From an uncultured Spirochaetota bacterium (GTDB taxonomy: Bacteria > Spirochaetota > Spirochaetia > SZUA-6 > CAVTHK01): a DNA stretch of 64,000 bases. Of the stretch, positions 4,942-33,976 are shown in pieces; within the stretch, counting starts at the first letter, position 1, and each line of letters starts with the position of its first letter. The stretch covers positions 160,001 to 224,000 of the forward strand of contig CAVTHK010000003.1 of NCBI GenBank assembly GCA_963734495.1, in the 5' to 3' direction. Made by a program: the position numbers and the translations under genes. The notes beneath the pieces were generated by a model that ran no database searches, was not told the DNA's origin, and worked only from the letters and a program-made list of their open reading frames with translations.

Positions 4942-6892
4942 TCAGCTCGACAGCCCGAGCTTCGCGTCCACCTTCGCCTTGGTCACCGCGAGCACTTCGC
5001 CCGTCTCCACGCGCACCAGCTTGAGGAACAGCTCGAAGCTGTCGCGCCTGCGGTAGAGCGTGCCCGAGAGCAGCACTTCGGCGCCGAGGAGCCTGCCGAC
5101 GCGCGCCGCGTTGGCCTCGTCGGCCAGGCCGGAGAGCTGGAGCTCGAGCTCGGCGAGGATCTTCTGCAGGTCCTTGCGCTCGACCAGTCGTAAAGGTCTT
5201 GTTCCGCGACAGCGCCTGAGTCAGCGAATCGGTAGAAGTACTCCGCGTCGAGCTTGAGTCCCTCGGGGGTCGGCACGAGCGGCACGGCGGCCGCCCGCGT
5301 GCCCGCGGCGATGCGCACGCTGGAGTAGTCGACGAGCTGGGAGAGGGCCATCTCGAAGAGCTTGCCGAGCGTGTCGCCCTTGCTCTCGTCCGCGACGCGG
5401 TCGGCCTGGAAATAGTCCTCTCCCTGGTCCAGCGGCTGGTCGGTCAGGTACGCCAGCTCTTCCCTGGCGAAGCGGATGATGATCGCCTCGAGCTTGTCGG
5501 TCTGGAAGTTGGCGCCGGTGTGGTGGCTGACGCTGCCGGGCGTGCCGCCTTCACTTTCGTCCTTTCTCGCCGTAGGTGAGGAAGATGTACTTGCCGTAGG
5601 TGTACTGGGCCACCTGGCGCAGGAGCAGCTCGCCTTCGAGCGGGAGCCCTCCGGTGCCGACGCTGAAGAACTTGATGCCGAGCCGCCGCGCGTCGTGGAC
5701 CGCGTCGACGTAGGTGTAGGCGGGCCTGTACTCGTCGAGGTGCGCGGGCGCGTCCGTGATGACAAAGGCGAGCCGGATGCCGTCGGGGCTCCACTGGACG
5801 CCCCTGATCGCCCGGCCGAGCGCGGCCTCGAGGTCCTCGGGCGTGTCGCCGCCGCCGTCGGCCTCGACCCTGGCGAGGGCCGCCTGGAACTGCGCGAGGT
5901 CCTCCGTGAAGGGCACGACACGGGTGCGGTACTCGTCGCCGCGGTCCTTGTACAGCACCATCCCGAAGCGCACGCGGGGCTTCGACGCGAGGCTCGCAGG
6001 TTCAGGTTGATGAGCTCGATGGTGGTCTTGAGGCGCTCGATCTCCTCGCCCATGCTCCCGGTCGTGTCCAGCACGAAGAGGATGTCCAGCGGCACGTTCT
6101 GGAAGCGCGACGCGGGGCCGGTCGAAGGCGACCGTGACCGTCCGCGGGCCGCGCCGGTCGATGTCGACCCCGAGCGTGCGTGCGGCTCGAGGTCACCTCG
6201 GCGCGGTAGGCAGCGAGCCTCGCGTCGTGCTCGAGAGGGAAGAAGAGGAAGGTCCCGTCGGCGTACGTGAGCCCCTCGGCGAGAAGGGCGCCGCCGCCGT
6301 TGACGCGCACCTGCGCGTTCGGGACGCTCTTGCCGTTGGCATCCGTGACCTTGAGCACGATCCGCTCGCCGATGGGGATGTCGCGGTGCTCGACGCTCCT
6401 TCGCCGTACTTGTCCAGGAACTGCACGAAGTAGTTGAACTGCTTGTTGTCGTCCGCGAACCCGGCCTTGAGGCCCGAAGCGGCCGGCGCGGCGGCCGCGG
6501 CGGCGCGCGCGGCCCGGGGCGTGCGACGCGAGCCGGCGACGGGGCAGGCGCGGTCGCCGGCGGCAGCGCGGCGGCGCGGCCGCCGCCGTCCTTGGCAGGC
6601 TTTTCAGTCAGCTCGAGAGTCGGCTTTCCGGGAGCCCGTGTCGGCGCCCCGGGTCCGGCGGCTGGCCCGGCGCCTCGGCCGCGGGCTCCGCGGGCTTCGG
6701 CGCGGGCTTCGCGCGCGGCGCCGGTGCTCGGGGCCGGGGCGCCGCCTTGCCGGCGTCGCCGGCCGGCGCCCTGGCCGCCTCCGGCGCGCCCGCGCAGGCC
6801 GCGAGCACGAGCGCGGCGCCGATCGCCACGGCGCAGACGATCGCGAGGCGGGTTGCCTTCTTTACCTCCTTGACCTCCGTCTTCGATCCCAA
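4942..6892 (-). CDS. VWA-domain lipoprotein with an Ala/Pro-rich linker and a C-terminal CsgG/FlgO-like domain (frameshifted)
   Basis: Lipobox LVLAAC; MIDAS LDTTGSM; GGGDTPED; ITDAPAH; C-terminus LQKILAELELQLSGLADEANAARVGRLLGAEVLLSG...LVRVETGEVL, ending TGA at 4942. Confidence 0.7.
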
Positions 6893-8138: not shown

Positions 8139-8969
8139 TCACTTTCTCGTTTCGGCTTTCTTCTGCGCGGCAGCGAGCCTCACCGCGATGCAGTCATACG
8201 ACGAGACGGTCGGCGCGAAGGACGAAACCGAACGCGGGATGATCCGCAGTCCGGCCGTGTCGAACGGGAGGCGGCCGGCAAGCGCGGAACCGAGGTCGGC
8301 GGCGGCCTCGATGCGCGCGTGACGTCCCTGTCCTGCGCGAGCACGATCGGCCTGGCGCCGGGGAGCAGGACGATGGAAAGCGGGAACGAGGCTGAGGGAC
8401 GCGAGCAGGTCGGCGGGGAGGCGCTTCGGCGAGCGGGGGCGGCGGCCTGTCTTGCCTCGAGCTGGATCATGCGCGCCTTGACATCGGGAAGGGCGCTCTC
8501 CGTGGCCGCGGCCAGCAGGTCGACGAGCCGGTTTCTCGCCTCGGCGAGGCTCTTCGCGCTGGAGAGCTCGCTCAGGGCCGGGTTCCCGTGGATCGCCCTC
8601 GCGAGGGCGGAGATTTCGCGCAGGTAGGCGTTCTTCTGGGAATCCGGGATGTAGTGCATCACGACGATGCGCACCGGCTTGCCGTCGGGCGACCCGTAGT
8701 CGATGCCCGTCGGGCTCCAGCCGATGGCGCACAGCAGATCGCCTTCGCCCGAGACGCGGCCGTGCGGGCAGGCCCAGCCGAGCGTGATGCCCGTGTTCGC
8801 CGCCCGCTCGCGGGCCATGACGGCGGCGTTGAAGTCGAACCCCGTCCTGAAATCGGGGACCGCCTCGATGAGGGTTCCCAGGTATTGAAGGCTCTTCTCC
8901 TTGTCCGCCTCGGGCAGCTCGATGAGCCTTCCTTCCTGCAGCGCGTCCAGCAGGCTCTTCAGGCCGCAT
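8139..8969 (-). CDS. PTS EIIA (Ntr/Fru-type) domain protein with a C-terminal extension (frameshifted)
   Basis: ARERAANTGITLGWACPHGR (phospho-His motif) and GIDYGSPDGKPVRIV. Confidence 0.75.
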   Translation of the reverse strand: MRPEEPAGRAAGRKAHRAARGGQGEEPSIPGNPHRGGPRFQDGVRLQRRRHGPRAGGEHGHHARLGLPARPRLGRRRSAVRHRLEPDGHRLRVARRQAGAHRRDALHPGFPEERLPARNLRPREGDPREPGPERALQREEPRRGEKPARRPAGRGHGERPSRCQGAHDPARGKTGRRPRSPKRLPADLLASLSLVPAFHRPAPRRQADRARAGQGRHARIEAAADLGSALAGRLPFDTAGLRIIPRSVSSFAPTVSSYDCIAVRLAAAQKKAETRK

Positions 8970-9037
8970 CCCCTGCGCCGGGCCGCTCGAGGCCAGGCGG
9001 GGGGCGCGCCCGCGGCCGTGCGGCCATCATCCGGTCG

Positions 9038-11669
9038 TCACTCCACGCCGAACCGCCGGAAGAACCGGCTCTTCACGACATGGGTGAGCGCGCAGTAGGC
9101 GACGAGGAAGGCGGCGATCCACGCCCAGTAGGCGGCGGGCAGGGCCACCAGGCCGAGGGCGGAAGCCAGCGGCCCATACGGAAGCGCGACGGCAACCGCC
9201 ATGATGCAGCAACGTGAAGAACGTCATGGTCGGGCTCGCCCGGCTCTGCACAAAGGGAACCTTCCTGGTGCGGATGACGTGGACGATCAACGTCTGCGTC
9301 AGGATCGATTCCACGAACCAGCCGGTGTGGAAGAGGGCCTCGTAGTAGGAACGGTCCCCCGGGCTTGCCGCCGGCGAAAGATACCGGGCGCACCCGAAGA
9401 CGAAGAGCATGAGGAGGAACGTGGCGTAGTCGAACAGGGAGCTGATGGGGCCGACGATCGTCATGAACCTGCGGATGTTGCCGATGTTCCACTTGCGCGG
9501 CACCCGCGTGAACTCTTCGTCCACCCGGTCCGTCGGGATGCCGATCTGCGACACGTCGTAGAGGAGGTTGTTGGCGAGCACCTGGATCGGCAGCATCGGC
9601 AGAAAGGGGAGGAAGAGGCTTCCCCCGAGCACGCTGAACATGTTGCCGAAATTGGAGCTCGCTCCCATGCGGATGTACTTGACGATGTTCGCGAACACGC
9701 GGCGGCCTTCGATGATGCCGTCGTCGAGCACGAGCAGGCTCTTTTCCAGCAGCACGATGTCGGCCGCCTCCTTGGCGACGTCGACGGCCGTGTCGACCGA
9801 GATCCCCACGTCCGCTTTCTTGAGCGCCGGCGCGTCGTTGATGCCGTCGCCGAGGAACCCCACGACGTGCCCCTTGGACTGCAGCGCCTGGATGACCTGC
9901 TCTTTCTGCAGCGGCGAAAGCCGCACGAGGATGTTGGCTCTTTCCACGGTCCGGCCGACCTCCTCGGCGGAAAGCGCTTCGAGCTGCGGCCCCGTGAGGA
10001 CGTTCTGCGCGTCGATGCCCACGTCCCTGCACACCTTGCGCGTGACGAGCTCGCTGTCGCCCGTCAGGATCTTGACGCTCACCCCCGCGGCCTCGAGCAG
10101 CCCGACGGCCTGGCGGGTCGACTCCTTGGGCGGATCGAGAAAGGCGATGTATCCCAGGAGGATCAGGCCGTTCTCGTCCGCCGCCGCAAAGGTCGTCTTG
10201 TCCCTCGGGAACTCGCGGTAGGCGATGGCGAGCACGCGGTAGCCGTCCGCGCTGAGCGCCTCGTAGTCCTCGAGGACGTCCTGCTTGACGACGTCGATCA
10301 TGGGGAGGATGTCCCCCTCCACCTGGTAGGAGGCGCAGACCTTGAACACCTCGTCGACCGCCCCCTTGCAGATCAGCACGTGATCGCCCTCGTACTCCAC
10401 GACGACGGACATGCGCCTGCGGGTAAAGTCGAAGGGGATCTCGTCGACCTTGCGGGCCCGCTGCTCCACCTCGAACTCAGTGTGGGCCAGGATGGCCCGG
10501 TCCAGCAGGTTGCGCAGGCCCGTCTGGTAGAAGCTGTTCATGTACGCGTAACGCAGGACCTCGTCGCTCTCCTTGCCCGACACGTCGACGTATTTTTCGA
10601 GGATGACCCTGTCCTGGGTGAGGGTGCCGGTCTTGTCGGTGCACAGGATGTCGACCGCCCCGAAATTCTGGATCGAAGGCAGACGCTTCACGATGACCTT
10701 GCGCTTCGACATCGCCATGGCGCCCTTGGAAAGATTGACCGCCACGATCATCGGGAGCATCTCCGGGGTGAGCCCCACGGCCACGGCGAGGCCGAAGAGC
10801 AGCGCATCGAGCCAGTCGTGCTTGGTGAGCCCGATGATGAAGAACACCAGCGTCACCATCACCACCATGAAACGGATCATGAGCCACGTGAATCCCGCGA
10901 TGCCCTTGTCGAAGCTCGTCTGCGTCCGGCGGCCCGCGAGCCTGCGGGTGATGGCGCCGAAGTACGTGCGGCCGCCCGTGGTGATCACGACGCCGCGCGC
11001 GCTGCCCGAGAGGACGTTGGTCCCCTGGAAGCACGCGCTGGGCAGCTCCAGCGCGGCGCCGTTTCCGCTTCCCGAGCCCGCGGGGCCGGCGCCGGCCGCG
11101 GTCTTCTCCACCGGCATCGATTCGCCGGTGAGGGCGCTCTGGCTGACGAAGAAGTCCTTGGCGGACAGAAGGCGGATGTCCGCCGGCACCACGGAGCCGG
11201 CGTCGAGTGCTACGACGTCTCCGGGCACGACGGCGGCGAGCGCGACCTCGGTCTCCCTGCCGTCGCGAAGAACGTTGACCGTGGTGCGCACCATGGCCTG
11301 CAGGCGCTCGACCGACCGTCCGGACCGTTCTTCCTGGATCGAGGAGAGGCCGACGCTGATGAGCAGCAGGGAGCCGACGACGACGGTCGACCGCAGGTCG
11401 CTCATCAGGAACGACACCCCCGCGATGACCAGCAGCTGGACCACGAGCGGATTGGCAAACCGATGCCACGCGCGGACGAGGGCGCCGGTGCTGCCGGCCA
11501 CGACCTCGTTGGCGCCGAACTGCCTGAGCCGGGCTTCGGCCTCTTCTTCGGTCAGGCCCCCGTCCCTGCTCGAGAGGCGGTCGAGGCAGTCTTCGGGCGA
11601 AAGCGAGCACGCCTGGCTGAGGGTCAGCTCCCCGTCGAAAGTCGTCGCCGGCGCCGCCAGGGTCGTCAT
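9038..11669 (-). CDS. mgtA: Magnesium-translocating P-type ATPase (frameshift near 9205)
   Basis: TGES, GLTPEMLP, DKTGTLT, GDGIND, ASSNFGN, NLLYD and TGWFVES are diagnostic of MgtA/MgtB. GGGAGG RBS before ATG 11669; stop TGA at 9038. Confidence 0.93.
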
Positions 11670-11684
11670 GAGCCTCCCATCAGC

Positions 11685-11714
11685 ATGATACGGTGCGCGG
11701 GGGCCGGCAGACAA
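11685..11714 (-). promoter_or_regulatory. Putative sigma70 promoter of mgtA
   Basis: Minus strand TTGTCT-N18-TATCAT, 15 nt upstream of the ATG. Confidence 0.4.
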
Positions 11715-11767
11715 ATTCGCGGGGCTCCGCGGGCTGCCGGAGGCCGCGGGGAGGGGGCCCCAAGCGA

Positions 11768-11945
11768 GGACATCCTTGTGCTCAGCCCGGGGCCTACGAC
11801 ATCCATGTCGGCCCCGGGCGCGCACGTCCCTGTGCTCAGCCCGGGGCTACGACATCCATGTCGGCCCCGGGCGCGCACGTCCCTGTGCTCAGCCCGGGGC
11901 TTACGACATCCATGTCGGCCCCGGGCGAGCACATCCCGTGCTCAG
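11768..11945 (-). repeat. Tandem array of ~3.3 x 53-54 bp hairpin units with GGA-containing loops (candidate CsrA-binding RNA or REP-like element)
   Basis: GTGCTCAG starts at 11778, 11832, 11885 and 11938. Minus-strand unit: GAGCAC-AGGGAC-GTGCGC-GCCCGGGGC-CGAC-ATGGAT-GTCG-TA-GCCCCGGGC-T. Confidence 0.9.
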
Positions 11946-14253
11946 TACGTGAGGCGCATGTAGAGGCGCGGGAGGACTGCGGGCAGGGCGTCGATGGACG
12001 GCAGGATCGCGAAGCGCCTGCCCGGGGAACATGATCTCCATGTCGGCCCGGCTCGCTTTCTCGGTCGAGATGGCGAAGGTGTGGATGCCCTTGCGCCGGT
12101 TCTCCTCGCAGGCCATGCGGACGTCGAACTGGGCGTAGCGGGTCTCGGGGTCGTAGCCCGCGTCCATCGGCCTGCCGTCGGTGACCAGCAGCACGAGCTT
12201 CTGGCGGCTGCGGCGCGCCCGCGAGCAGCGTCCCCGAGTGGCGCAGCGCGGCGCCGATGCGGGTCGAGCTGCGCGGCGCCGCGCCCATCAGCCTGCGGAT
12301 CGTCTCGGGTCCCCAGGCGGTCGGCGAAGCCCTTGTAGACGTAGTACTCGCAGTTCTCGCGGCCCTGGCCGCTGAAGCCGCAGATCGCGAAGCTGTCGCC
12401 GAGGCCCGCGAGCCCCTGCCCGAGGATCAGGGCCGACTCGCGCTCGATCTCGATGATGCGTCTGCGCCTCCCGCTCCTCGTCCCGGTCGAGCCGCTGCAG
12501 TCCATCAGGATCAGCGTCGCGAGGTCGCGCTTGCGGATGCGCGGCTTCTGGTAGAAGCGCACCGGCGGCGACGGCTCGTGCCTGCGGCTCACGAGGAACT
12601 CCACGAGAAGGTCGACGTCGATCGCGTCGCCGCTCTCCAGCCTCTTTTCCTTGCCGCCAGGTCCGGCTTGAGCCACTCGAAGATGCGCCGCGTCCTCTGG
12701 CCCTGCTCCACCACGCCGGGAGGCAGCCTGGGCCGAGCCGACGGGCTCGGCGGCGATCTCGTGCACGACGCAGTGATCGGGCAGGTAGTCGTGATCGCTC
12801 TGGCTCCACTCGTCGTAGACAAAGCCCGCGCTCCCGGCCGCCGGCGAGCGCTCGCCCGTCGGCTTGCCGTGCGCCGACGACGCGGTCCGCGGCCTGCGGC
12901 CCGGCTCGTCGCGGCTTCTCCCTGGCGCCTTCCGGCGCGTCCCCTCAGGTCCGCGATCGCGGCAGTCCGACGGCGGCGCTCGCTCTCGCCCCGGTAGAGG
13001 AAGTCGGGCAGAAAGCTCACGGGCGCAAGCAGCCTCGCTGCGAGAGCGCCGGCAGCGCCTCGGCGGCCTTCTGCATCGGACCGGCGTGAGGCGGCCGGCC
13101 GTGTCGAACGCGTTGACCGAGGCGGCGATCGTCCGCCGCAGGAGCGCGAGCCCGCCGCGCTCGCCCGAGGCCGCGTCGCCGGCGAGCACCGCGAGCCGGC
13201 CCGCCGCGCCGCCGCGCGCTGCGGCCGCCTCCGCGGCCAGCGCCCAGTCCAGGAGCGGGCGCACGCCCGGCCAGGCGGCGCGGGCGTAGCGCAGCGCGCG
13301 GGCGTACTCGATCACGCTGCGAAGAGGTTCAGCGCGAGCGGGTCGTCTCCCGCACGAGGTCGACGGCGCTGCGGAACGAGGGGTGGCCGTGGATCGCGGG
13401 GAAGGCTTCCCACCTCGTGGAGCGCCGCGGCGCGAGACCGCGGCGAGCACGTACCAGCTCCGGTTGGCATCGCGGCGTGCGGATAGGCGCGCTGCCGCTG
13501 CGGCAGGTGCAGCCTGCCGTGCAGGCACACCGTCGAGGAGCCGCGCTCGGCGAGCCGCTCCTCGTCGAGGCCGCGCCAGGTCGGACGACCTCGACGCGTG
13601 CGGCCGCTGAGCGCCTTGAGCAGCCGCGCGAGGTGGCCGCGACCACGGCCGCGAGCGTGCACTCGCGGCTCAGGGTGCGGATCATCGCCTCGCACCCGGC
13701 CAGGCGTGCCCTCGAGGAAGCGCTGGGCGGTCTTCGGGGTGGCCGCCCTGCATGCGCGAGCGCCTCTTCGACGTAGCGGTCGATCTCCGCCGGGCCGAGG
13801 CGCTCGACGAGCCTGCGATAGCCGCGCAGCAGCGCGAACGCGAGCTCGTCGCCCGCCTCGGCGCGCAGCCTCTTGAGCAGCCTCATGAGGTGCGCGATCT
13901 CGTCGGGCGTGCGGCCGAGCCCGCCCTCGCCGAGGAGACGGAAGAAGGTCGTCCCGTAGTAGATCCGCGACTCGGCGAGCTTGCAGCCCATCTCCGTCAC
14001 GTCGGCGAAGATCGAAGGCAGCGACACGATCCAGCGCGTCTCGGGGTTGAGGGCGCGCAGGAAGTCGTAGAGGACGTGGTCGAAGAGGTTGCGCTCGCTG
14101 CGCTTGAGCAGGTCCAGGAACCGGCGCGTGACCGCCTCGTTCTCGGGCCCGAGCAGGCCCTCGTCGAACAGCGAGCCGATGACGCGCTCGAAGACGCCCC
14201 GGTAGCCCCAGCAGACGCCCTTGAAAGGAGAACCCCTCGAAACGGGCGCTCAC
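11942..14253 (-). CDS. NorD/CbbO-like VWA-domain protein (heavily frameshifted)
   Basis: [37 protein letters not shown] (MIDAS), [18 protein letters not shown] and [13 protein letters not shown], typical of the NorD/CbbO C-terminus. Confidence 0.75.
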
Positions 14254-14299
14254 CCGGCCTCCGCGCGGGCCCGGTCGCTGCCGGCGGGCCCCCCGCCGG

Positions 14300-15168
14300 G
14301 CGCTGGGCCCGGTCGGGCCGTCGCCGGTCGGCGAGCGCCGGGAGCGCGCAAGCTCTCCGAAATGCAGGCTCACGACGCCCTCGATCGAGTCCATGATCTC
14401 GTGCTCGTCGGTCAGGGTCTGGCTGATGGCGCTCCGGCACGCGGTGAGCGCGTCGAGGCCGGACCTCATCAGCCGGCCCACGTACACGAGCAGGCGCGAG
14501 CTCACCCCTTCTTCCAGCCCGAAGCCCTTGAGCTCCCGGAGGCGCGCGCCCATCTCCGCGAGCCTGCGGCTCGTGTCGGCGTCCAGGCCCGTCTCGCGTG
14601 CGCACGATCTCGGTCTCGATCTCCACAGGCGGATGGTCGAATACGAGGCTCGCGAAGCGCTGCTTGGTGGACTGCTTGAGGTCCTTGACGATGCTCTGGT
14701 AGCCGGGGTTGTAGCTGAGCGCCATCATGAAGGCCGGCGTGCGCCCGCACCACCTCGCCGGTCTTGTCGATGTAGAGCATGCGGCGGTCGTCGGTGAGCG
14801 AGTGGATGACGACCGTCGTGTCCTTGCGCGCCTCGACGATCTCGTCGAGGTAGCAGATGCCGCCGTAGCGCACCGCGAGGGTGAGCGGACCGTCCTGCCA
14901 GACCGTCTCGTCGTCCCGCAGCAGGTAGCGGCCGACCAGGTCGGAGGCCGTCAGGTCTTCGTGGCAGGACACGGTCACCAGGGGAAGGCCGAGGGCATGA
15001 GCCATGTGCTCGACAAAGCGGGTCTTGCCGCACCCGGTCGGCCCTTTGAGGATCACCGGGATGCGGGAGGCGAAGGCGGCGCGGAACACCTTCTCCTCCT
15101 GCCCGTGGGGTATGTAGTTGGGCGCGAAAGGGCACCCGGAAGCGCTCGAGGTACTCGGTCCTGTCCAC
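14300..15168 (-). CDS. CbbQ/NirQ/NorQ (MoxR-class) AAA+ ATPase (frameshifted; 3' end approximate)
   Basis: [65 protein letters not shown] and [12 protein letters not shown]. Confidence 0.9.
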
Positions 15169-15331
15169 CCCACACGATTACACCCGCGCGGCCCGCAGAG
15201 GCAAGCGCCGCCCGACACGGCGCCCTGGTCCCGAGTCCTCGAGGGAATGCGGGCCCCGCCGGCGCCAGGCGCCCTGGCCCAGCGTACTCGCTGGGGATGG
15301 CAAAGCCGGCGGGCGCACCCGCCCCCCAGGC

Positions 15332-15360
15332 TTGAATCCGGTGCGGCGGGGCGATAGACT
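15332..15360 (+). promoter_or_regulatory. Putative sigma70 promoter of the hybrid kinase
   Basis: TTGAAT-N17-TAGACT, 11 nt before GTG 15372. Confidence 0.45.
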
Positions 15361-15371
15361 CTGGCTCGCCC

Positions 15372-17295
15372 GTGAACGCACCCTTCCCTTTCGACAACGA
15401 GCTGCTCGCCGACGTCGTGCGCCAGGCGACCGAGTCGATCGTCGTGACCGATCTCGACGGCAACATCGAGTACGTGAACCCGGCCTTCGAGCGCGTGACC
15501 GGCTACGCCGCCTCGGAGGTGCTCGGCCGCAACCCGCGCGTCCTCAGGGCCGAGTCCGCCGCCTACCCGCAGTCGTTCTACGCGGACATGTGGCGGACGA
15601 TCAGCGCCGGTGAGGTCTGGCGCGGCGAGTTCACGAACCGGCGCAAGGACGGCACGATCTACGTCGAGGAGGCGGTGATCTTTCCGATCCGCGAGGCACC
15701 GTCCGGGCCGGATCACGCGTTTCGGCGCGGTCAAGGCGGACGTGACCCGGCGCAAGGAGCTGGAGGGCCGGCTCCGCGAATCCTACGACGAGATGGTCGA
15801 GGCTCAAGGAGCAGGCCGAGCAGGCGAACGCGGCCAAGAGCGAGTTCCTCGCCCACATGAGCCACGAGATCCGCACGCCGTTGAACGGGATCATCGGCTT
15901 CCTCGAGCTGCTGGCGCGCACGCGTCTGGACGACACCCAGGCCGACTTCGTGCGGCTCGTCCGCCGCAGCGCGCAGAACCTGCTGGGAGTCATCAACGAC
16001 GTCCTGGACCTGTCGAAGATCGAGAGCGGCAGGCTGGAGCTCGAGCAGGTCGGGTTCGACCCGCGCCAGGAGCTGGAATCGATCGTCGACCTCTTCAGCT
16101 CGGGGGCGAGCGAGAAGAGCATCCATTTCTACTGCTTTATCGACCCGGCCCTGCCGGCGCGCCTGATCGGGGATCCGCTTCGGATCAAGCAGGTGCTCGC
16201 CAACTTCATCAGCAACGCGCTGAAGTTCACGCCCGAGGGGCGGCTGGTCTCGGTCGAAGTGCGGGTGACCGGGTCGAGCGGCGGGCGCTGCCGGATCCTC
16301 TTCTCGGTCGCGGATGAGGGCATCGGGATCCCCAAGGACCGGCAGCGCACGATCCTGGAGGCTTATACCCAGGGGGACAGCTCGGTGAGCCGGAAGTTCG
16401 GGGGCACGGGTCTCGGGCTCACCATCAGCCAGCGGCTGATCACGCAGATGGGGAGCACGCTCGAGCTCGAAAGCGACGAGGGCAAGGGCACCCGCTTCAG
16501 CTTCGAGATCGAGCTGCCGATCGCCGACGCCGGCAGGAGCGATGGCGGCAAGAGGCTGCGCGTCGCCCTGGCGCACGGCGGGCCGCCTCCGCTCGAGCGG
16601 CTGATCCGCGAGTACCTCGAGGGGCTCGGGTGCGACACGGTGCCCGTCGGAGATCCCGCCGAGGTGCCGCACGGCTGCGACGTGATCGTCATGGTCCACA
16701 CGGGCGGCGACCGCGACGGCGCGAGGGCGTTCGCCGCCACGGGCGTTCCGGTGGTCGTCGTCGCGGAGCCCGCGCAGAGGGCCGAAGCCGACACGCTGCC
16801 GGTCGCGAGGGTGATCTATACTCCGTTGCACGGATCGCGCCTGAACGAGGCGCTGCTCGCGGCCAAGGGGGCCGGCGGCGTCGAGGCGCCGCGGGAGAGC
16901 CGGCCTCGCGGCGCTGCCGCAGGCGCGGGGCCGGGCGCTCGTCGCCGAGGACAACGCGGTCAACCAGAAGCTGATCGGCTACATGCTGCGGGCGGCCGGC
17001 GTCGAGGCCGACATGGCTGCCGACGGCGAGCAGGCCGTCTCCATGTTCGCCTCGGGCAGCTACGACATCGTCTTCATGGACGCGAGCATGCCGGTGCGTC
17101 GACGGCCTGGAGGCCACCCGGCGCATCCGGCTCCTGGAGCGCGAGCAGGGGCGGTGGCACACCCCGATCGTCGCGCTCACGGCCCACGCGGTCAAAGGGG
17201 ACCGGGAGCGGTTCCTGGCGGCCGGGATGGACGACTACCTGCCCAAGCCGATCGACGTCGACGCCCTCGCGCGGCTGCTCGCGCGCCGGCTCTGA
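15372..17295 (+). CDS. PAS-domain hybrid histidine kinase/response regulator (frameshifted)
   Basis: PAS ([12 protein letters not shown]), H-box [11 protein letters not shown]-box NALKFT, G-boxes DEGIGI and GGTGLGL; receiver AEDNAVNQ...FMD...LTAHA...GMDDYLPKP. Confidence 0.9.
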
Positions 17296-17328
17296 GCCGC
17301 GGCTGCCGCCGCGAGTCCTCCGGGGGCG

Positions 17329-17807
17329 TCAGGCCCCGCGCGGATGGAACGACTTCTTCTCGAGCTCCCTGATCTTGTCGACCTTGGGCTGGGAGCGCCC
17401 GCCCTGGAAATCCGAAGGGCAGCCACGCATCGACGATGGACTTCGCGAGCTCCGGCCCGATGACGCGCGCGCCCATCGTGAGCACCTGCGCGTCGTTGCT
17501 CTTGCGCAGACGCTCCGCCGAGTACACGTCGTGCGCCGTGCCCGCGTAGACTCCTTCGACCTTGTTCGCGATGATGGCCATCCCGAGGCCGGTCCCGCAC
17601 ATGAGGATCCCCCTGTCGAAGTCTCCCGCGCGGATCCTCGAGGCCAGGTTGTATCCGATCTCCGGGTAGTCGGCCTTGCGGCTGCCCAGGGTAGTCGAGG
17701 TCGGTGACGTCGACACCTTTCGCCCTGAGGTGAGCGACGATCTCCTTCTTGAGCTCGATCGCGGCGTCGTCGCAGTCGATCGCGAGCCGCACCTTGTTCC
17801 CCGCCAT
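17329..17807 (-). CDS. rpiB: RpiB/LacA/LacB-family sugar-phosphate isomerase (frameshifted)
   Basis: [38 protein letters not shown] and [10 protein letters not shown]. Confidence 0.8.
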
Positions 17808-18857: not shown

Positions 18858-20823
18858 CTATCCGGCGCGATGTGCGTCGCCACTGGCTGCCCCCGTGAAC
18901 TGGCTGTAGTAGAGCTCGGCGTAGAACCCGCCGCTTGGAGCAGCAGGTCCTTGTGATTCCCCATCTCGATGATGCTGCCGTTGTTCATGACGAGGATGGT
19001 CTCGGCGTCGCGGATCGTCGACAGCCGGTGCGCGATCACGAAGCTCGTTCTCCCCTTCATGAGCTCCTGCATGGCCTTCTGGATGTGGACCTCGGTCCTC
19101 GTGTCGACGCTGCTGGTGGCCTCGTCGAGGATGAGGATCGCGGGGTCGGCCAGGATGGCGCGCGCGATCGTGAGCAGCTGCCTCTCGCCCTGCGAAAGCG
19201 TCGAGGCCTCCTCGTTCAGCACCGTACTGTAGCCCTCCGGCAGGGCCCTGATAAAGTGGTCCGCGTGGGCGGCCCTGGCCGCCCGCACGATCTCCTCGTC
19301 GCGTGGCTCCCTCCCTGCCGTAGGCGATGTTCTCCCTGATGGTCCCGTTGAAGAGCCAGGTGTCCTGGAGGACCATGCCGAACATCGTGCGCAGGCTGCC
19401 GCGCCGCAGGTCGCGGATGTCGATGCCGTCCACCGTGATCCTGCCGGAGTCGATCTCGTAGAACCGCATCAGGAGGTTCACCAGCGTGGTCTTGCCCGCC
19501 CCGGTGGGCCCGACGATCGCAATCGTTTGCCCCGGCGCGACGTCGATGCTCATGTCCTCCATGAGCGGGGCGTCCGGCGAGTAGCCGAACCTGACGTGGT
19601 CGAACTTGACCGCGCCCCGGGGCGAATCGATGACCCTCGCGTCCGGGGCCTCGGGGACCTCCTCGGTCTCGTCGAGGAGCTCGAAGACCCGCTCCGCCGA
19701 TGCGATCGTGGATTGCAGGATGTTGGCGATGCTCGCGGTCTGGATGATCGGCTGCGTGAACTGCCGCGAGTACTGGAGGAACGCCTGCACGTCGCCGAGC
19801 TCGATCAGCCTCTTCGTGACGTATATGCCGCCCATGACGGAGACGATCACGTAGCCGATGTTGTTCACGAACCGCATCATCGGGAAAGATGAGGCCCGAC
19901 ACAAACTGCGCGCGCCAGGCGGCGCGGTAGAGCCGGTCGTTGATCTCGCGGAACTCCTGCACCGACCTCGCCTCGTGGCGGAACGCCTTGACCACCTTGT
20001 GGCCCGTGTACATCTCCTCGATGTGCCCGTTGAGCTCCCCGAGCACCCGCTGCTGGGCGACGAAGTGCTTCTGCGAGTGCGCGGGCGATCGTCGAGGTGC
20101 CGACGAAGGACATCGGGCAGGGTCACGATCGCGATGACGGTGAGCATCGGACTGATGGACAGCATCATGACGACGACGCCGAGGATGGTGCAGACCGAGG
20201 TGATCAGCTGCGTCATGCTCTGCTGCAGCGTCGAGCTGATGTTGTCGATGTCGTTGGTGACGCGGCTCATGATCTCGCCGTGGACGTGGGAATCGAGGTA
20301 CTTGAGGGGGAGCCGCGCGAGCTTGTCGTTGGCGTCGCGGCGCATGTCGAACACCGTGAGCTGCGAGACCGCCGGCCATGATGTTCTGCTGCACGAAGCT
20401 GAAGAACGGCGCTGGCGAGGTAGAGCCCGAGCAGCGCCGCGAGGATCGACCCGATGTACTTGAAGTCGATCGTCGGTACCGTCTGGTGCATCCGGTGGGC
20501 CGCGATCTTGGCGATGATCCCGTGAAAGAGCCTGGTCGTGGCGTTGCCCATGATCTTGGGGCCGAGGATGCTGAACGCCGTGCTGAGGACCGCGAACACG
20601 ACGACCGTGACGATCTGAGCGGTGTGCGGCCTCAGGTAGACCATGAGCCTCTTGAGGGTCCCGAGGAAATCCTTGGGCTTCTCGAGCGACGACCGCGAGC
20701 GGACCGCGGCCGGTGAACGCGCCCATGCCGCCCGGCCGCCCGCCGGGCGGTCTGCCCGAAGAACCCGGGCGCCGTCGCCGGCCGCGCCGCGCCCGCCGCT
20801 TCCGGCCGTCGGTCCCCGCTCAC
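18858..20823 (-). CDS. ABC exporter, fused permease/ATPase, subunit B of a heterodimer (frameshifted)
   Basis: [47 protein letters not shown] and IAHRLSTI. Confidence 0.9.
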
Positions 20824-23375: not shown

Positions 23376-23510
23376 GCCGCGTCGGGACCGTCCCCTGGCA
23401 GCGACGGCCGCCTGCGACGCCTCGCCGGCGGCCGTCGAACGCCTCGAGCCAGCCTTGCGCCCTGCGCGCACGTGTCCTTCGCGGCAACAGAGCTTCGAGG
23501 TGAATAACGC

Positions 23511-23777
23511 ATGACCCGCTCACTTTACTTCACGACGGGAGCCGACGGGGCGCTGGTGGCGGCCACCACGATGGAGCACGCGGTCCTGGAGGTGCTGACC
23601 GTCCCCGACGACTATGACGACGCGGCGGCCCTGCAGATCGCGCAGAGCGTCTTCGGCTCGGGGGTGATCGAGACCCGCGCGCGCACGGGGACCCGGGGAG
23701 GGCCCGTCCGTATCACCTGGGCGGCTCTGGTGGAGAGGGGGATGGAAGCCGGCGTGCTTGGGCAGGAAGACGCCTGA
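23511..23777 (+). CDS. Hypothetical protein (88 aa)
   Basis: GAGGTG RBS, plausible composition and codon use; no recognisable motif. Confidence 0.5.
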   Translation: MTRSLYFTTGADGALVAATTMEHAVLEVLTVPDDYDDAAALQIAQSVFGSGVIETRARTGTRGGPVRITWAALVERGMEAGVLGQEDA

Positions 23778-23779
23778 GC

Positions 23780-26700
23780 GGCCCGGCGGCGGGCCGGACC
23801 CCACCCTCCCGCCCATCGAGCAGGAAGCGTCCGTGCGCTTCCGTTGCCGTTCCCCTTGCCGTTGCCGATTTCCCGCCGCCTTGACGGCGTCCGCCAGCCG
23901 CTGCGCCTGAAGTAGGAACGTCTCCAGGCGCGCCTCCTCGATCTGCGTAAAGACGTTTCCGTCGAGCTCCACGAAGAGGCACGGCAGCACGTCGACGTCC
24001 TTCCTGATCTGCCCGAGCTCGATCTTCCGTCCCGCGTTCCGCGCCGCCCGTTCCTTGCCCTCGACCGTCATCTCGACGGCGGCCACCGCCTCGGTCATGC
24101 GCGCGTTCATGCACCCGAAAGGACCCACGGCGATGATGCCGCAGTACTTGCCGGCGAGATGGTGGAGGGCGGCGCCGGAGGAGAGGCCCGGCTCCCCGGT
24201 GAGCTGCAGCGGGATGAAGTGCGTGGAGTGGGCGAGGTAGGCCCTGATGTCGATGAGCTCGCGCTCGTACAGCCCGCTCCTCGCGAGGAGACGCTTGACC
24301 CTGCGCTCGTGATACAGCTGCACCAGGCCCGAGACGAGCGCCTCCAGTCTGCCGGCGAGCTTCAGCTTCGCCGTGTACAGCCCCATGCCGCGCATAAAGT
24401 CCGTGTAGCGGACCCATTCGGACACGGGGGCGTCCAGCATGACGAATCCGTGCTGCGCCAGCCGCTCGGGGATCCCCATCAGGCAGAAATGGTCCCGGCG
24501 CACGAATATCTCGCCCACCACCCCGATGTACCTGGCTTCGCGGAGCGGCGCGCGGAGCCTGATCGCGGACAGCGCCTTGACGGCTTCCCGCAGCTGCCCG
24601 TACGTGGAGCGGCGGACCGTGCCGTCAAAGGTGCCCAGGAGCTTGCGCGTTTCCGTCTCGAAGATCGCCATCGCGCGCTGCCTGTCCACCGCCAGGGCCT
24701 TGATGGCGGAGCGGACGTCGTCCAGGACGTCGAAGAGGTACAGCGCCTTGACCGCCTCCAGGCGGAACGGGACGCCCAGGCCCGCGTAGCCGTCGTCGTT
24801 CGACAGGAGAAGCATCGCGACGTCGCGCAGCCCCTGCTTCTCGATCATGGCGCGGATGAGGATCTCGTACTGGCCGACGCGGCAGCAGCCTCCGGCGTCC
24901 ACCATGATGACGAGGAGCTTCTCCGAGGGGTCGCTGCGGTGCTTGAGGTACCTGCGTATCTCCCCCAGGATGTTGATGATGGGCAGGCATTCCTTGTTCG
25001 TGGTGACGGCCCTGCCCAGGTCCAGGGCCTCCCTGTCGCAGACGGGCAGCGCCTCCGCGTTCCAGCCCATCCCGCGGAATACGGCGGCCATGCCCTCGGC
25101 GAAGAGGTCCCCCATCGAGGGGACCACGACCTTGACCCTGGGGTCTCTGACCGGGAAGCGCTCGCCGCCCGAATCGACGTAGAAAGCGCGGCCGGCGTGG
25201 TCGATCTCGGTGCGCGCCGCAGCGACGGCCGCCACCGGGTCCCTCACGGCGTCCCTGATCTTGACGTAGTTCCGCACGACGTCGAGGAACGCCTCGATCC
25301 TCGTGTTGACCCCCGCGTCGGCCGTGTGGGAGTCCACCTCGAGGGTGAGGGACGGCTTGGTCTGCATGAGGTCGCGGAAATGCGGCACCATCATGGAGTC
25401 GAGGGCGCAGAGGAAGTTGGTGAGATAGCAGCCGAAGAGCTGCGGGTGCCTCTTGACGATCCGCGCGGCCTTGATGATCTTCTGGCCCATCTCCCAGTAG
25501 GTGTCGCGGAAGTTCTCCTCCTCCTCGAGCGCGAGGAAGTCGAAGGGGATGATCTCGATGCCGCGGGACGCGAACTTGAAGGGGACCCCCTTGTTCGCCT
25601 CGTCGGTGAACGCGTTGTAGGGCCTGCCGAACAGGACCACGGCGATGCGGTCCGGGTCGGCCTCGAGCTCCGCGAGGATCCGCCTTCCCTCCGCCTTGAG
25701 CGCGGCGAAGAACTCCAGCTGCCTTTCCACCGCCAGCCCGTGCGCCCGCTTCGCCCGGGCTTCGTCGAAGCCCATCTCGCGGGCGATCTCGACGAATCGC
25801 TTCTCCTCGGCGCCGTAGCCCGTCATGAAATTGAGCGGCGGCGCGATGAGGCCGGGCGCGCCCGGGCGCGTCGCGGAGGAACGTCGCCCTCTGGTACCAC
25901 GGCTCTCCCTGAAGGAACATGCAGGTGGCCTGGTACTCGACGCGGTACTCCTCCTGCGGCGAGACGTGCATCTCCTTGATCTGGGGCATGAAGATGTAGT
26001 CCGGCTTCTTCGCGAGGAGGTCCTCGAACATGCCCAGCGCGATCTGGCCGGAGAGGCAGAAGCTGGTCATGCCCTTGTCGATGCCCGTCTGCCGCACGGT
26101 GTCCGGCATGACGATCCTGCAGCCCAGCTCCGTGAAGAAGGTCGAGTACATCGGGTAGAGGGTGTGCGTGTGGAACGAGCGGTTGATGCCGACGAGCGGA
26201 CCGGATGACGCGCAGCCCGCCGCGGGGCGGGGCGAAGAGCATCTCGGTGCGCTTCTCCACATGGTTGTACTTCGCGACTTCGTAGCGCACGTTGCCGGAT
26301 CCGGTTGTAGTACTTGTTGCAGGCGCCGCCGAAGGGGAACTTCTTCCCCGCGACGTGGATCATCGCGATCTCGCACTTGCGGTCGCAGTTCTCGGGCTGC
26401 CCCTGGCAGACGAAGCTCTTGCCGTGCTCCACTTCGCGCGCGGCGAGAGCTCGGACAGGTCGAAGCTCCCTCTGCTGCAGGAGACCCAGGGAAAGCATGT
26501 TCTTCAGCTCGAGGGCGACGCCGTACGCGCCCATCAGGCCCGGGTGAGGCGGCACCACGATCCTGCGGCCGATCATGCCCGCCATGGCGATCGGCACCGC
26601 CTTGTTGTAGCAGACGCCCCCCTGCATGAAGACCTTGGCGCCGGTGTGCCGCGAGCCGCGCACGCGGTTGGCGTAGTTGATGCAGACCGAGTACACGAGC

Positions 26701-28208
26701 CCCGCGACGATGTCTTCCTTGCCGATGCCTTCCTGGAACGCCGTGGTGATGTCGGAGGAGATGAACGCCGCGCACTGGTCGGAGAAGTTGGGCGGGCCGC
26801 TTCGCGCGGAGCGCGATGTCGGCGATCTCCTCCATCGGGACGCCGAGGGTCTCCTGCGCGGACTCCTCGAGGAAGCTCCCGGTGCCCGCCGAGCAGGCCT
26901 CGTTCATGGCGTAGTCGGAGGCGACCGAGTTCGTGAGGTAGGTGTACTTCGCGTCCTGGCCGCCGATCTCGTAGATCGTGTCCACTTCGGGGTCGAAGTG
27001 CGCCGCGGCGCGCGCGTGGGCGATGATCTCGTTGATGATGCCGTCGGTGCCCGCGTGGAGCCCCGCGATGTACCTGCCGCTTCCCGTGACGCCCACGCCG
27101 ATCACGTCCACGCCGACGTCCCCGAGCTGCTCCGCGATGGACGCGGTAGCAGTCGCGGGACGCCTTGACGGGGTCCCCGTTGGTGCGCAGGTACACCGAC
27201 TTGAGGATCTTCTCGTCCGCCGCCCGCATCAGCACGGCCTTCGTGGTCGTGGAGCCGACGTCGAGGCCCAGGATGCACTCGTCGCCCGCCCGCGGCTCCT
27301 CGAAGGGCATCTCCTTGAAGTCCACCATCGACGCGAAGTCCGAGATGGGCTTGTGGAACTCGAAGGAGGAGCCGGCGTCCCGGTAGTACTGTCCCCGCCG
27401 CCGGCAGCGCGGTCCTGCCGCGTCCTGAGGGCCCACAGCGCGGCGCCGAGCGCCTCGAAGTACGGCGCTTCCCGCGGGACGGTCACGTCGAAGCTCTCCC
27501 TGAGGAACCCGATGACCACGTCGTTGCGCGCGGTCCCCCCGACGATCAGCACCCTGCGCGCGTTGATCTTGACGAGGAGCTCCTCGATCTTCTTGGCGAT
27601 CATGCGGGCGAGCCCGGCCACGACATCCGCGACCGGCTCCGCCCTTGTTCAGGGCGTGGGTGCAGTCGGACTTGCAGAACACGGAGCAGCGGCCGGAGAG
27701 CTGGTGGGGGTGCGTCGACGTCCGCGCGAGCCTCACCGCCTCTTCGACCGAGACATTCATCCTGCCGGATCTGCTGGAGGAAGAACTCGCCGGTGCCGGA
27801 CGCGCACTTGTTGCCCGAGCCGATGCGCGACACCTTGCCCTTGGCGTCCATCTGGTAGACGAGAAAGCTCTCGGCGCCGGCCGAAACGACCGCGTCGAAG
27901 CGGGCGTCGCCGCCGGCCACGAACGCCAGCGCGTACTCGGTGGCCTCGGGCTCGGTGATGGAAGGCGTCGCGAGGAGGCGCCGGAACTTCCGCCCGGTGG
28001 CGCCGAGGTACTTCCCCTTCAGGTCGCGCCCGTCGAGGCACGCGGCGAGGACCGTCTTGGGATCGCCGTCGTGCTGTCGCTGCACGATGTCGACGACTCG
28101 CACCGACGCCTGCGCGCGACTCGATCTCGACCAGCGAGAGGGTGGAAGCGCCGAGGCACAGGCCCGACCGCGCGGGTGGCCTCTTCGTTTGTACTGCAGG
28201 TTGCCCAT
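23780..28208 (-). CDS. Multidomain CoA-substrate-specific enzyme activase/reductase: 2x BcrAD/BadFG ATPase + DUF2229 + HGD-D-like (PlsA/Ger-like), copy A (frameshifted; 3' end uncertain, last frame open to 23520)
   Basis: GNKCASGTGEF, SGRCSVFCKSD, GLDVGSTTTK, EIGGQDAK, MNEACSAGTGSF, FGGACNKY, LFGRPYN, LTLEVDSHTADAG, KECLP and GPFGCM. Confidence 0.88.
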
Positions 28209-28342
28209 GGATCGCTCAATTCATACACCGGATCGACTCACCCGTGAAAGCCCCGCGGGCGTCCCCCGGGCCTTGCGTCGCGGCCCGCGGGTGTGACGAG
28301 GCATGCAGTCCCGTGAAGACGAACCTTTCGATCCTTCCCGTC

Positions 28343-29503
28343 ATGCTCCGGTCGACGCCCGACTACGTCTGGCCGATCGCGAAGATGTTCGCGAAGAAGG
28401 CGCTGGCCGAGCAGATCGACTACAGGCGGGGATCGGACCGCAGCAAACGACTCGCCTTGGTCACCTTTCGCATAACTCCTCTCTGCAATCTGAGTTGCGT
28501 CATGTGCTGCCAGCGCGGCAAGACGGGCGTCCTCAAAGGCAAGTACGCGCTCGAGGAATCGAAGAAGATCGTCCCCATCCAGCGGTACAAGGACCTGGTC
28601 GACGAGCTCAAGGGAGTCGACCCCGTCTTCTACGTGTGGGGCGGCGAGCCTTTCCTCTACCCGGACTTCATGGACCTCGCGGCCTACATGGCGCGCAAGT
28701 CGAGGGCGTTCACCGTGAACACCAACGGGACCTACCTCGCCGCGAACGCCGAGCGGATCGTCCGCGACCAGTGGACGGGGGTCTACGTGTCCCTCGACGG
28801 GACCGAGGAGGTCAACGACCCCATACGCGGCAAGGGCACCTACAGGCGGGTGGAGGAGTCCTTCCGGGCCCTGAACGCCGAGAAGAAGCGGCAGGGATCG
28901 AAGCTTCCTTACCTCGGCATGGTCACGACCATCAGCAACCTGAATTACCGCCACCTGGAGGAGACGGTGCTGAACGCCCGCCAGTTCGGGCTTTCATGGC
29001 ACATGATCAACCTGGGGACGTACACCGACCAGGCGGCCGTGAGCCGGCAGCAGGCCTTTATGAAGGAGACCTTCGGCATCGAGGTCAACTCGATGCAAGG
29101 GTTCCTCAACGGCTACAACGAGGGCATCGACGGCGCCGAGTTCGCGGAGATCCTGGCAAGGGTGCAGCGGCTCGACTGCGGGCACCCCGTGATCACGGTG
29201 CCGGTGGAGCGGGCCGACCGGATCGAGAAGTACTATACCGACTTCGAGGCCTCGCCCAAGCATCACTGCATCTGCCCCTGGATACAGGTGGACATCGATT
29301 ACAACGGCGACGTGCACCTCTGCATAGACTACCCCGAGTACACGATCGGAAACATCAAGCAGGACGGGCTCCTCTCGATCTTCAACAACGAGAAGGCGGC
29401 CGCCTTCCGCCGCAAGCTCCTGGCCGCGCCCGACGGCATCTTTCCCGGCTGCAGCCGCTGCTATCAGCACATGCTGATGGGCCGGACGAACAAGCGTTTC
29501 TAG
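28343..29503 (+). CDS. Radical SAM protein with a SPASM/twitch domain
   Basis: CNLSCVMC (CxxxCxxC), WGGEPF, NTNG, VSLDG; C-terminal CICPW...GDVHLC...IGNI...CSRC. Alternative start GTG 28313. Confidence 0.92.
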   Translation: MLRSTPDYVWPIAKMFAKKALAEQIDYRRGSDRSKRLALVTFRITPLCNLSCVMCCQRGKTGVLKGKYALEESKKIVPIQRYKDLVDELKGVDPVFYVWGGEPFLYPDFMDLAAYMARKSRAFTVNTNGTYLAANAERIVRDQWTGVYVSLDGTEEVNDPIRGKGTYRRVEESFRALNAEKKRQGSKLPYLGMVTTISNLNYRHLEETVLNARQFGLSWHMINLGTYTDQAAVSRQQAFMKETFGIEVNSMQGFLNGYNEGIDGAEFAEILARVQRLDCGHPVITVPVERADRIEKYYTDFEASPKHHCICPWIQVDIDYNGDVHLCIDYPEYTIGNIKQDGLLSIFNNEKAAAFRRKLLAAPDGIFPGCSRCYQHMLMGRTNKRF

Positions 29504-29517
29504 CAGGACGGAGCGGC

Positions 29518-33927: not shown

Positions 33928-33976
33928 TTCAGCCGGCCGGAGCGCGGCGCCGGCAGTCAAGGGCTCTCTCGGGGTA

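Follow-up and report, generated by a model that had tools for sequence, protein, structure and literature searches.

A tandem array of GGA-loop hairpins between norD-like and mgtA genes of an uncultured Spirochaetota bacterium: a possible CsrA-binding RNA module

Introduction

CsrA is encoded in most bacterial phyla. RNA sponges that act on it are established mainly in Gammaproteobacteria, and the lineages that carry FliW are thought to rely on this protein antagonist. RsmW, one of the sponges, is said to derive from a 3' untranslated region (3'-UTR), and an mRNA-derived sequester of RsmA has reportedly been described in Xanthomonas. In this study, we analyzed a 64,000-nt stretch of DNA from an uncultured Spirochaetota bacterium (assembly GCA_963734495.1, contig CAVTHK010000003.1, positions 160,001 to 224,000; hereafter the window), which contains an array of seven hairpins with GGA in their loops at 11763..11945 (-), between a NorD-like gene and mgtA. 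Judged from its sequence, the array is best explained as an RNA module that binds CsrA multivalently, a reading that we hold tentatively and to which we give a probability of roughly 0.4.

What is stated here about the closest described systems is drawn from excerpts of the cited papers. RsmW of Pseudomonas aeruginosa, an RsmA sponge derived from a 3'-UTR, has 7 GGA motifs, and the gene upstream of it is not followed by a terminator (PMC4950607). The CsrA consensus obtained by the ligand selection procedure SELEX is RUACARGGAUGU; ACA and GGA occur in 100% of the ligands and GU in all but one, and in most of them AC/GU pairing closes a loop of six nucleotides, with at most 4 contiguous pairs (PMC7652899). 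Apical hexaloops of the form CANGGANG have been called high-affinity CsrA sites (PMC4894983), and a CsrA dimer can bridge sites 10-63 nt apart (PMC7652899). The CsrA of Leptospira recognizes GGA presented in a hexaloop and no longer binds once GGA is replaced by AAA (PMC8668096).

For RNA-based titration of CsrA in a FliW-type organism, the excerpted literature gives the flaA leader only (PMC7652899, PMC4894983). FliW is the CsrA antagonist discussed for Leptospira, where the excerpt reports no csrB/csrC homologue (PMC8668096); this agrees with an earlier annotation of the locus made from its letters alone (the sequence-only reading), which had named FliW as the described antagonist in spirochaetes. 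The same annotation knew of no Csr RNA in the phylum, which must be qualified, since a 'CsrA-like ncRNA' (noncoding RNA) has been predicted, though not validated, in Leptospira biflexa (PMC4863578). This prediction was the sole lead among the literature matches listed, which contained no described CsrA sponge RNA in spirochaetes. The literature on Borrelia CsrA, judged by title, offered no spirochaete sponge, and a paper from that on CsrA with mgtA and magnesium tied CsrA to iron, not to mgtA.

Results

Repeat structure of the array

The array is composed of three near-identical 53/54-nt units on the minus strand (11892-11944, 11839-11891 and 11785-11838), followed by the first hairpin of a decayed fourth unit. 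Tandem Repeats Finder detected a repeat of period 53 at 11773-11945 (3.2 copies, 94% matches, 2% indels, score 304) and a weaker half-period of 27 at 11813-11898 with 65% matches. The units are 94-100% identical to one another, the mean column identity of their alignment is 96%, and the terminal units carry several substitutions and indels. Scored with a covariance model built from the unit, the three good units reached 82-88 bits and the decayed fourth (11736-11784) 22.8 bits. By all appearances, the units are a recent tandem amplification of a two-hairpin module.

The 5' end of the array lies one base ahead of the TGA that ends the NorD-like gene, and its 3' end falls about 100 nt short of mgtA. 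The overlap with the NorD-like gene is confined to the first array bases over the stop codon, so that the array occupies the space between that stop (11944-11942) and the mgtA ATG at 11669, an intergenic location of the kind sought by Kulkarni et al. (2006) in their search for Csr small RNAs (sRNAs). The sequence-only reading had described a 53-54 bp tandem repeat carrying seven GGA-loop hairpins and starting at the NorD-like stop codon, and this description was borne out by Tandem Repeats Finder, by the folds of single hairpins given below, and by the position of the TGA inside CTGAGCAC, the first repeat word of the minus strand. The minus-strand motifs that it listed are all present as given: ACGGGATGT once, ACATGGATGT three times, ACAGGGACGT twice and ACAAGGATGT once.

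Display of GGA in the hairpin loops

Two types of hairpin alternate along the array. Type A, GAGCAC-AGGGAC-GUGCGC, has four contiguous pairs and a hexaloop at about -5 kcal/mol, and type B, GCCCGGGGC-CGAC-AUGGAU-GUCG-UA(A/G)-GCCCCGGGC, has a nine-pair outer stem and a 2-3-nt bulge at -26 to -27 kcal/mol. In transcript order on the minus strand, hairpin A1 (11927-11943, GAGCAC-GGGAU-GUGCUC, GGA at 11936-11934, -8.0 kcal/mol) has a 6-bp stem and overlaps the NorD-like stop; in the ensemble of a 246-nt transcript, its G, G and A are unpaired with probabilities of 0.86, 0.87 and 0.96. Hairpin B1 (11892-11926, GGA at 11911-11909, -26.1 kcal/mol) has a 9-bp G+C outer stem, a UAA bulge, the inner stem CGAC(A)/(U)GUCG and the loop (A)UGGA(U), in which GG is unpaired with a probability of 1.00. 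Hairpin A2 (11873-11890, GGA at 11882-11880, -5.2 kcal/mol, unpaired probability 0.95-0.98) consists of GCAC-AGGGAC-GUGC, a 4-bp stem with a hexaloop, and hairpin A3 (11820-11837, GGA at 11829-11827, -5.2 kcal/mol, 0.95-0.97) has the same sequence. Hairpins B2 (11839-11872, GGA at 11857-11855, -26.5 kcal/mol) and B3 (11785-11819, GGA at 11804-11802, -27.0 kcal/mol) were found, like B1, as matches to the type B pattern. The last hairpin, A4 (ACAAGGAUGU, 11763-11783, GGA at 11775-11773, -4.0 kcal/mol), has the stem ACA/UGU, the loop AGGA and a C.C mismatch in the lower stem, and its GG is unpaired with a probability of 0.62.

When each hairpin was folded in isolation, GGA occupied the apical loop in all seven, which is the display looked for by Kulkarni et al. 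(2006), and both G residues of every GGA were unpaired with probabilities of 0.62-1.00 in the transcript ensemble. In the global minimum-energy fold of the 246-nt transcript, neighboring units pair together. The check that the sequence-only reading had proposed, folding of the minus strand to confirm the GGA loops, thus came out in its favor for single hairpins. Its statement that each motif sits at the apex of a stem holds for the seven loops and less well for the stems as it drew them, since GAGCAC/GTGCGC includes an A.G mismatch that leaves 4 contiguous pairs, and the stem of A4 is interrupted by its C.C mismatch.

Agreement with the CsrA-binding site

The sequences ACAnGGAnGU and CANGGANG fit six of the seven array loops; the published CsrA site cited in the sequence-only reading is therefore matched throughout the array apart from A1. 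Type A (ACAGGGACGU) and type B (ACAUGGAUGU) each have one mismatch to the ten-base SELEX core, hairpin A4 matches all ten bases, and A2 and A3 show the typical shape of SELEX ligands, with AC/GU pairing, a six-nucleotide loop and at most 4 contiguous pairs. When types A and B are aligned at GGA over 14 nt, they are the same at exactly 8 positions, ACA..GGA..GU, and different at the 6 others, and both stems stay complementary although the two types differ at all six non-consensus positions. The chance of this identity pattern is 1 in 3003 if the 6 differences are placed at random, a post hoc figure for a locus that was picked for its motif. The four copies of type A all keep GGA, and where bases have been substituted within their 10-nt core (G to A and C to U), it is at the two N positions.

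The sites are spaced 25-29 nt apart, within the 10-63 nt that a CsrA dimer can bridge. GGA occurs 7 times on the minus strand of the array, which is the strand of both flanking genes, vs once on the plus strand. The word ACANGGANGT occurs 9 times in the window, where 0.89 are expected, and 6 of these 9 lie within the array. Loop GGAs on Watson-Crick stems of at least 4 bp reach 6 per 200 nt in the array and 4 at the next best place on either strand. The CsrA-binding reading rests on the consensus fit of both hairpin types, the sense-strand bias and the spacing of the sites, together with the occurrence of the array at a single locus within reach of our searches and the precedents of the RsmW sponge and of titration by the flaA leader. 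Also on its side are the unpaired state of GGA in the ensemble, the RsmW match described below, the binding of a GGA hexaloop by Leptospira CsrA, the FlgM-like gene of the window and the Spirochaetia relatives of MgtA.

Search for related RNAs and further copies

In a local Rfam scan, the top match to the array was RsmW (RF02809, CsrB clan CL00106) on the sense strand, with 26.8 bits and an E-value of 0.044, and the GGA loops of the model sit on GGA loops of the array. No further copy of the unit was detected in the window at up to 3 mismatches, by palindrome pattern or by the covariance model run without filters. One covariance-model match at 23403-23470 (21.7 bits) was rejected as an unrelated two-hairpin spacer between convergent genes.

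Among 185,579 reference genomes, a set from which the source genome is evidently absent, a 21-mer of hairpin B gave five single matches (Alphaproteobacteria and Streptomyces). These matches are attributed to chance, because all lie inside reading frames, without the complementary arm and without a repeat. A distant BLAST search of plasmid records returned no match to the array. The 88-codon minus-strand frame over the array had no protein match, and the 113-codon plus-strand frame matched three repeat proteins (with PGAQV and KPGVEIPVA repeats), which were rejected as unrelated. The extended mgtA frame has 932 codons; its first 120 residues matched the window's own protein only.

Flanking genes and signals

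The array is flanked by genes on its own strand: NorQ-like, NorD-like and mgtA genes all lie on the minus strand, with the array between the last two. The gene upstream of the array is a NorD-like gene with a VWA domain (11942..13528 (-)), whose last open frame has 528 codons. Its product had no Pfam match and matched the structure of a 'Nitric oxide reductase NorD protein' (9qhd_G in the PDB) with an E-value of 1.8e-13; query residues 229-526 align to 341-636 of 638 in 9qh6_G. As this alignment reaches 636 of 638, the C-terminus of the product lies at its natural place. Further upstream is a NorQ/CbbQ-like AAA+ gene at approximately 14360..15060 (-), in which AAA_5 (5e-30) and CbbQ_C (3.1e-17) are matched in different open reading frames (ORFs). 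A histidine kinase gene is found nearby at 15746-17704.

The downstream gene, mgtA (9027..11669 (-)), encodes a magnesium-translocating P-type ATPase, with 1041.8 bits against the TIGR01524 equivalog vs a cut-off of 610.75. Its start ATG (11669-11667) was confirmed by the alignment of the N-terminus with 8 homologues. Relatives of MgtA at 74-80% identity include four with a named organism, all Spirochaetia bacterium metagenome-assembled genomes, which are the closest named and support a spirochaete origin of the DNA; a relative at 66% identity is named Kiritimatiellaeota. The gene contains a 1-nt frame change near 9206, where tblastn of the homologue P0003 splits at 9207/9205. Beyond it, the conserved C-terminal part is encoded at 9205-9041 in the other frame, with 76% identity to a homologue, so the C-terminal tail of the annotated 880-aa product is wrong. 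A PTS EIIA-2 domain protein (8183-9037 (-)) lies directly downstream of mgtA on the same strand.

A consensus scan of the minus strand at 11945-12200 found no sigma-70-like promoter ahead of the array. Between the array and mgtA, a terminator-like hairpin was found at 11708..11731 (-), CGCGGAGCCCCGCG followed by AAUUUGUCUG, in a consensus scan that gave 2 sites vs 0.2 expected in the region. It has a weak 5-bp G+C stem (11731-11718), then AATTTGTCTG and a tail to about 11708, and as the sole 3'-terminator candidate of the array it is a possible 3' end of the array-bearing transcript. A sigma-70-like match, TTGTCT-18-TATCAT at 11685..11714 (-), agrees with the consensus at 9/12 positions (1 site vs 0.1 expected) and is a consensus match only; it coincides with the suggestion of the sequence-only reading that mgtA has its own promoter downstream of the array. 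If the terminator and the promoter are both real, the array would belong at the 3' end of the transcript from norQD rather than in a leader of mgtA.

Frame changes and other contents of the window

The third-position G+C profile indicates that the coding frame changes many times in the norQ-like/norD-like region at 12030-15760 (-), which reflects either assembly indel errors or a decaying operon. Several other genes gave partial domain matches only, namely ABC transporter (18861-20819), CsgG (4945-5220), SpoU methylase (44081-44455) and BcrAD_BadFG (26070-27648), which suggests that such changes of frame occur along the contig as a whole. Taken together, these many single-base changes look like assembly indel error rather than decay.

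Two transfer RNAs, at 33977-34048 (-) and 37923-37996 (+), are the only Rfam matches in the window above the gathering score. A fragment resembling the anti-sigma-28 factor FlgM (45982-46431 (-), Pfam FlgM 4.6e-06) suggests that the organism has a flagellar system; no flagellin family was found in the scanned segments of the window. A cluster of CoA-enzyme-activase-type genes with BcrAD_BadFG and DUF2229 domains extends over both strands at 23523-34024 and includes a 1273-codon frame (28297-32115) overlapped by a radical SAM gene (27959-29503). Other repeats are present in the window. Two neighboring genes at 58377-62081 (-) are ELWxxDGT-repeat paralogues, one of them also with a LruC domain, and each holds two copies of a 138-bp repeat (59196-59465 and 61620-61889). 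In the region 49155-57275, an 1828-codon ORF (49155-54638 (-)) with internal repeats and no Pfam or NCBIfam match stands beside a 735-bp period (55516, 56251 and 56986) that likewise matched no family.

Discussion

A possible CsrA decoy in a 3'-UTR

If the array binds CsrA, it would form the 3' tail of a norQ-norD-like transcript on the minus strand, as no terminator lies between the stop codon and the array, and this transcript would probably end at the weak terminator-like hairpin at 11731-11708 or else continue into mgtA. Folding during transcription would produce the seven hairpins, with the weak 4-bp/hexaloop type alternating with the strong bulged type and GGA on top of each. Dimers of CsrA could then bridge neighboring loops 25-29 nt apart, so that three to four dimers would be held per RNA. 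The RNA might act as a decoy that lowers free CsrA, or the stability or read-through of the transcript might be tied to CsrA, or both. Such a module would have grown by recent tandem duplication of the two-hairpin unit. We infer the transcription of the array and its strand, the presence of CsrA in the organism, its binding and any regulatory effect.

Several observations, however, weigh against this interpretation. No family named CsrA or FliW was found among the 151 six-frame segments that were scanned in the 64-kb window, a part of a 466,515-bp contig, and the presence of fliW is reported to be anti-correlated with the BarA-UvrY system that drives Csr sRNAs (PMC7652899). The array has AGGA/ANGGA at 6 per 180 nt, and other, mostly coding, stretches reach 6-8 per 180-240 nt; a permissive count of GGA in any 4-bp hairpin does not set the array apart either. 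Kulkarni et al. (2006) look for an AGGA/ARGGA density above background in a non-repeat region, and the array was not distinguished in this way, the background here being the 64-kb window including its coding stretches and not the intergenic regions of a whole genome. The published search for Csr sRNAs removes repeat-built intergenic regions as unlikely sRNAs (PMC1488887). All seven sites were copied from two hairpin types, so that they do not count as seven independent events and their counts overstate the evidence; if the 27-nt half-period reflects common descent of the two types, they amount to one independent observation and not two.

The hairpins themselves also provide counterarguments. 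The type B stems, at -26 to -27 kcal/mol, are far more stable than the short stems of typical CsrA ligands, the loop of A1 (ACGGGAUGU) departs from CANGGANG, and the B-type GGA loop has been lost in the decayed fourth unit. Owing to the frame changes of the contig, the difference between 53 and 54 nt in unit length and the missing A in the loop of A1 are uncertain. Compared with shuffled sequences, the array folds with a z of -5.55 on the minus strand and -5.92 on the plus strand; it folds equally well on both, so folding does not pick the strand. The RsmW match of 26.8 bits is sub-threshold, far from the gathering score of 52, and RsmW was not among the matches of either the E-value scan or the gathering scan of the whole window, while the same hairpin-rich sequence gave microRNA matches of about 20 bits on the opposite strand in the local scan. 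RsmW is thus not considered a homologue of the array, because its score is far below gathering and the match is lost in the whole-window scan; the likeness is one of design, not of homology. Finally, no related array was found with array-derived ORFs among billions of predicted proteins.

A possible in-place amplification of a REP-like palindrome

The most serious alternative is that the array is a repetitive extragenic palindrome (REP)-like element amplified in place by slippage or unequal recombination, in which the GGA of the loops is a coincidence that has been multiplied. Its role, if any, would be structural, for example in shielding the upstream message from 3' exonucleases and so stabilizing it, or in insulating transcription units from each other. 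We regard this as quite possible and only slightly less likely than the CsrA-binding reading. The type B hairpins, small G+C-rich palindromes that begin 17 nt after the stop codon, are imperfect and 34-35 nt long, within the REP size of 20-40 bp, and a place directly downstream of a coding region between co-directional genes is the preferred REP location (PMC3733652). Directly before the palindrome GCCCCGGGC...GCCCGGGGC stands GTAG in units 2 and 3 and GTAA in unit 1; GTAG is the tag of the largest REP super-family (PMC3733652), and these bases are the bulge of hairpin B in an alternative register. Tandem reiteration of REPs with flanking DNA has been described (PMC3733652), and the near-identity of the units points to recent amplification. 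The equally good fold on both strands suits a REP-like element as well, and AGGA-rich, repeat-built intergenic regions are common enough that the search for Csr sRNAs needed a filter (PMC1488887). The proposal of the sequence-only reading that the array may be a 3'-UTR-derived RNA that titrates CsrA therefore stands in part: the loops fit the CsrA site and their spacing is within range, but the same features also fit a REP-like repeat.

In contrast, REPs are high-copy elements, and the mismatch, palindrome and covariance-model searches found one locus in 64 kb; the 21-mer had no true copy in the 185,579 reference genomes and the plasmid records held no match. All array units point the same way, whereas pairing of copies in opposite orientation is found in many REP families (PMC3733652), and no transposase-like family turned up in the Pfam scans of the window. 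Amplification of a REP also leaves unexplained why the two hairpin types share exactly the positions that are invariant in CsrA ligands. A REP co-opted for CsrA binding would reconcile the two readings.

Other explanations

The hairpins could alternatively form a CsrA-independent cis element, either a leader of mgtA or an intercistronic element of a norQ-norD-mgtA operon, that governs read-through from the upstream genes into mgtA, or the processing or differential decay between them, with Mg2+ or translation as a possible signal. This explanation draws on the 272-nt spacer directly upstream of a bona fide mgtA, on the placement of the norQ-like gene, the norD-like gene and mgtA on one strand, and on a 35-codon frame (11666-11773 (-)) that runs from an ATG in the last GGA loop (11773) to a TGA overlapping the mgtA ATG (ATGA). 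Such a frame is reminiscent of the leader peptides of enterobacterial mgtA. We consider it improbable, however. No Mg2+-sensing or other leader family appeared among the 11 Rfam matches at E-values up to 10 in 11000-12600 or in the gathering scan of the window, and the sigma-70-like promoter and terminator-like hairpin that lie ahead of mgtA would leave the array out of the mgtA message. The 35-codon frame, which contains 7 proline codons, was rejected as a leader peptide, as it lacks both a usable Shine-Dalgarno spacing and a third-position G+C signal. The window has a G+C content of 67.6%, at which stop codons are rare and a frame of 35 codons is expected by chance; it is probably a chance frame in G+C-rich DNA.

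A further explanation, which we consider very improbable, is that the repeats act as DNA, with GACAT-NN-ATGTC and GCAC-N6-GTGC serving as an operator array through which a dimeric transcription factor would control mgtA or norQD. The inverted repeats do recur at a regular 53/54 bp, about five helical turns, directly upstream of the promoter-like site, and the histidine kinase gene at 15746-17704 lies nearby. Nested bulged stems with G+C-rich clamps are nevertheless typical of folded single strands rather than operators. The first bases of the array still belong to a coding region, no gene for a regulator lies beside it, and no data indicate a particular DNA-binding protein. It is hardly credible that the array is an assembly artefact, in the sense of a real hairpin module whose unit number and 53/54-nt differences come from error-prone assembly: single-base frame changes in conserved genes (mgtA at 9206), the repeated frame switches of norQ/norD and the several other genes with partial domain matches only are in line with it, but a genuine tandem repeat that is ageing would be expected to show both the substitutions and indels of the terminal units and a decayed fourth unit.

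Implications and comparison with known systems

If the array is a CsrA decoy, Csr sRNA-type control would have a wider range than is now established, and the locus would provide a worked example of the birth of a sponge by tandem amplification. It would mean that FliW-type Csr systems can also evolve sponge RNAs, quickly and out of REP-like palindromes, and the neighborhood of mgtA would hint at a link of CsrA with magnesium or with NorQD-type metal-chaperone physiology. The stronger claim, that this is the first CsrA RNA decoy in Spirochaetota, a 3'-UTR array of seven consensus hairpins acting beside FliW, we consider doubtful. If the array is instead an ordinary amplified palindrome, it would serve as a warning that tandem duplication can mimic CsrB from one or two chance motifs.

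Within the spirochaetes, the 'CsrA-like ncRNA' of Leptospira biflexa is the closest counterpart in kind, a CsrA-regulating RNA predicted by the AGGA/ARGGA density method (PMC4863578, cited in PMC8668096). It is an unvalidated prediction, and Leptospira is a distant lineage of low G+C content. Among repeats, the array resembles REPs and bacterial interspersed mosaic elements, which are G+C-rich palindromes of 20-40 bp found 3' of coding regions, with a GTAG tag and sometimes in tandem (PMC3733652). Those elements differ in their high copy number, since the array unit occurs once in 64 kb and in one orientation, and the excerpted REP survey lists Spirochaetes with the CGTC type only and not with the GTAG type (PMC3733652).

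CsrB/CsrC and RsmX/Y/Z of Gammaproteobacteria share with the array the presence of many loop GGAs in one short RNA, and these sponges sequester CsrA/RsmA dimers (PMC7652899, PMC1488887, PMC4894983). They have their own promoter with an upstream GacA/UvrY site and a clear terminator (PMC1488887), and their repeats are imperfect and old, in hosts that, according to the excerpt, lack FliW (PMC7652899). The array, in contrast, has no predicted promoter of its own, a weak terminator-like site and units that are 94-100% identical. The flaA leader of Campylobacter jejuni is an mRNA-borne CsrA antagonist in a FliW-type organism, with two GGAs in adjacent hexaloops of the CANGGANG type (PMC4894983). 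Its two sites lie in the 5' leader of the main CsrA target, which is itself translationally repressed (PMC4894983), whereas the array has seven sites after a stop codon and no link to a flagellin gene. RsmW, which binds RsmA, agrees with the array in having 7 GGA motifs (PMC4950607). It comes from a different phylum and is not made of near-identical tandem units, and in RsmW GGA lies on the outer stem-loops in 3 of the 7 motifs, compared with all 7 in the array (PMC4950607).

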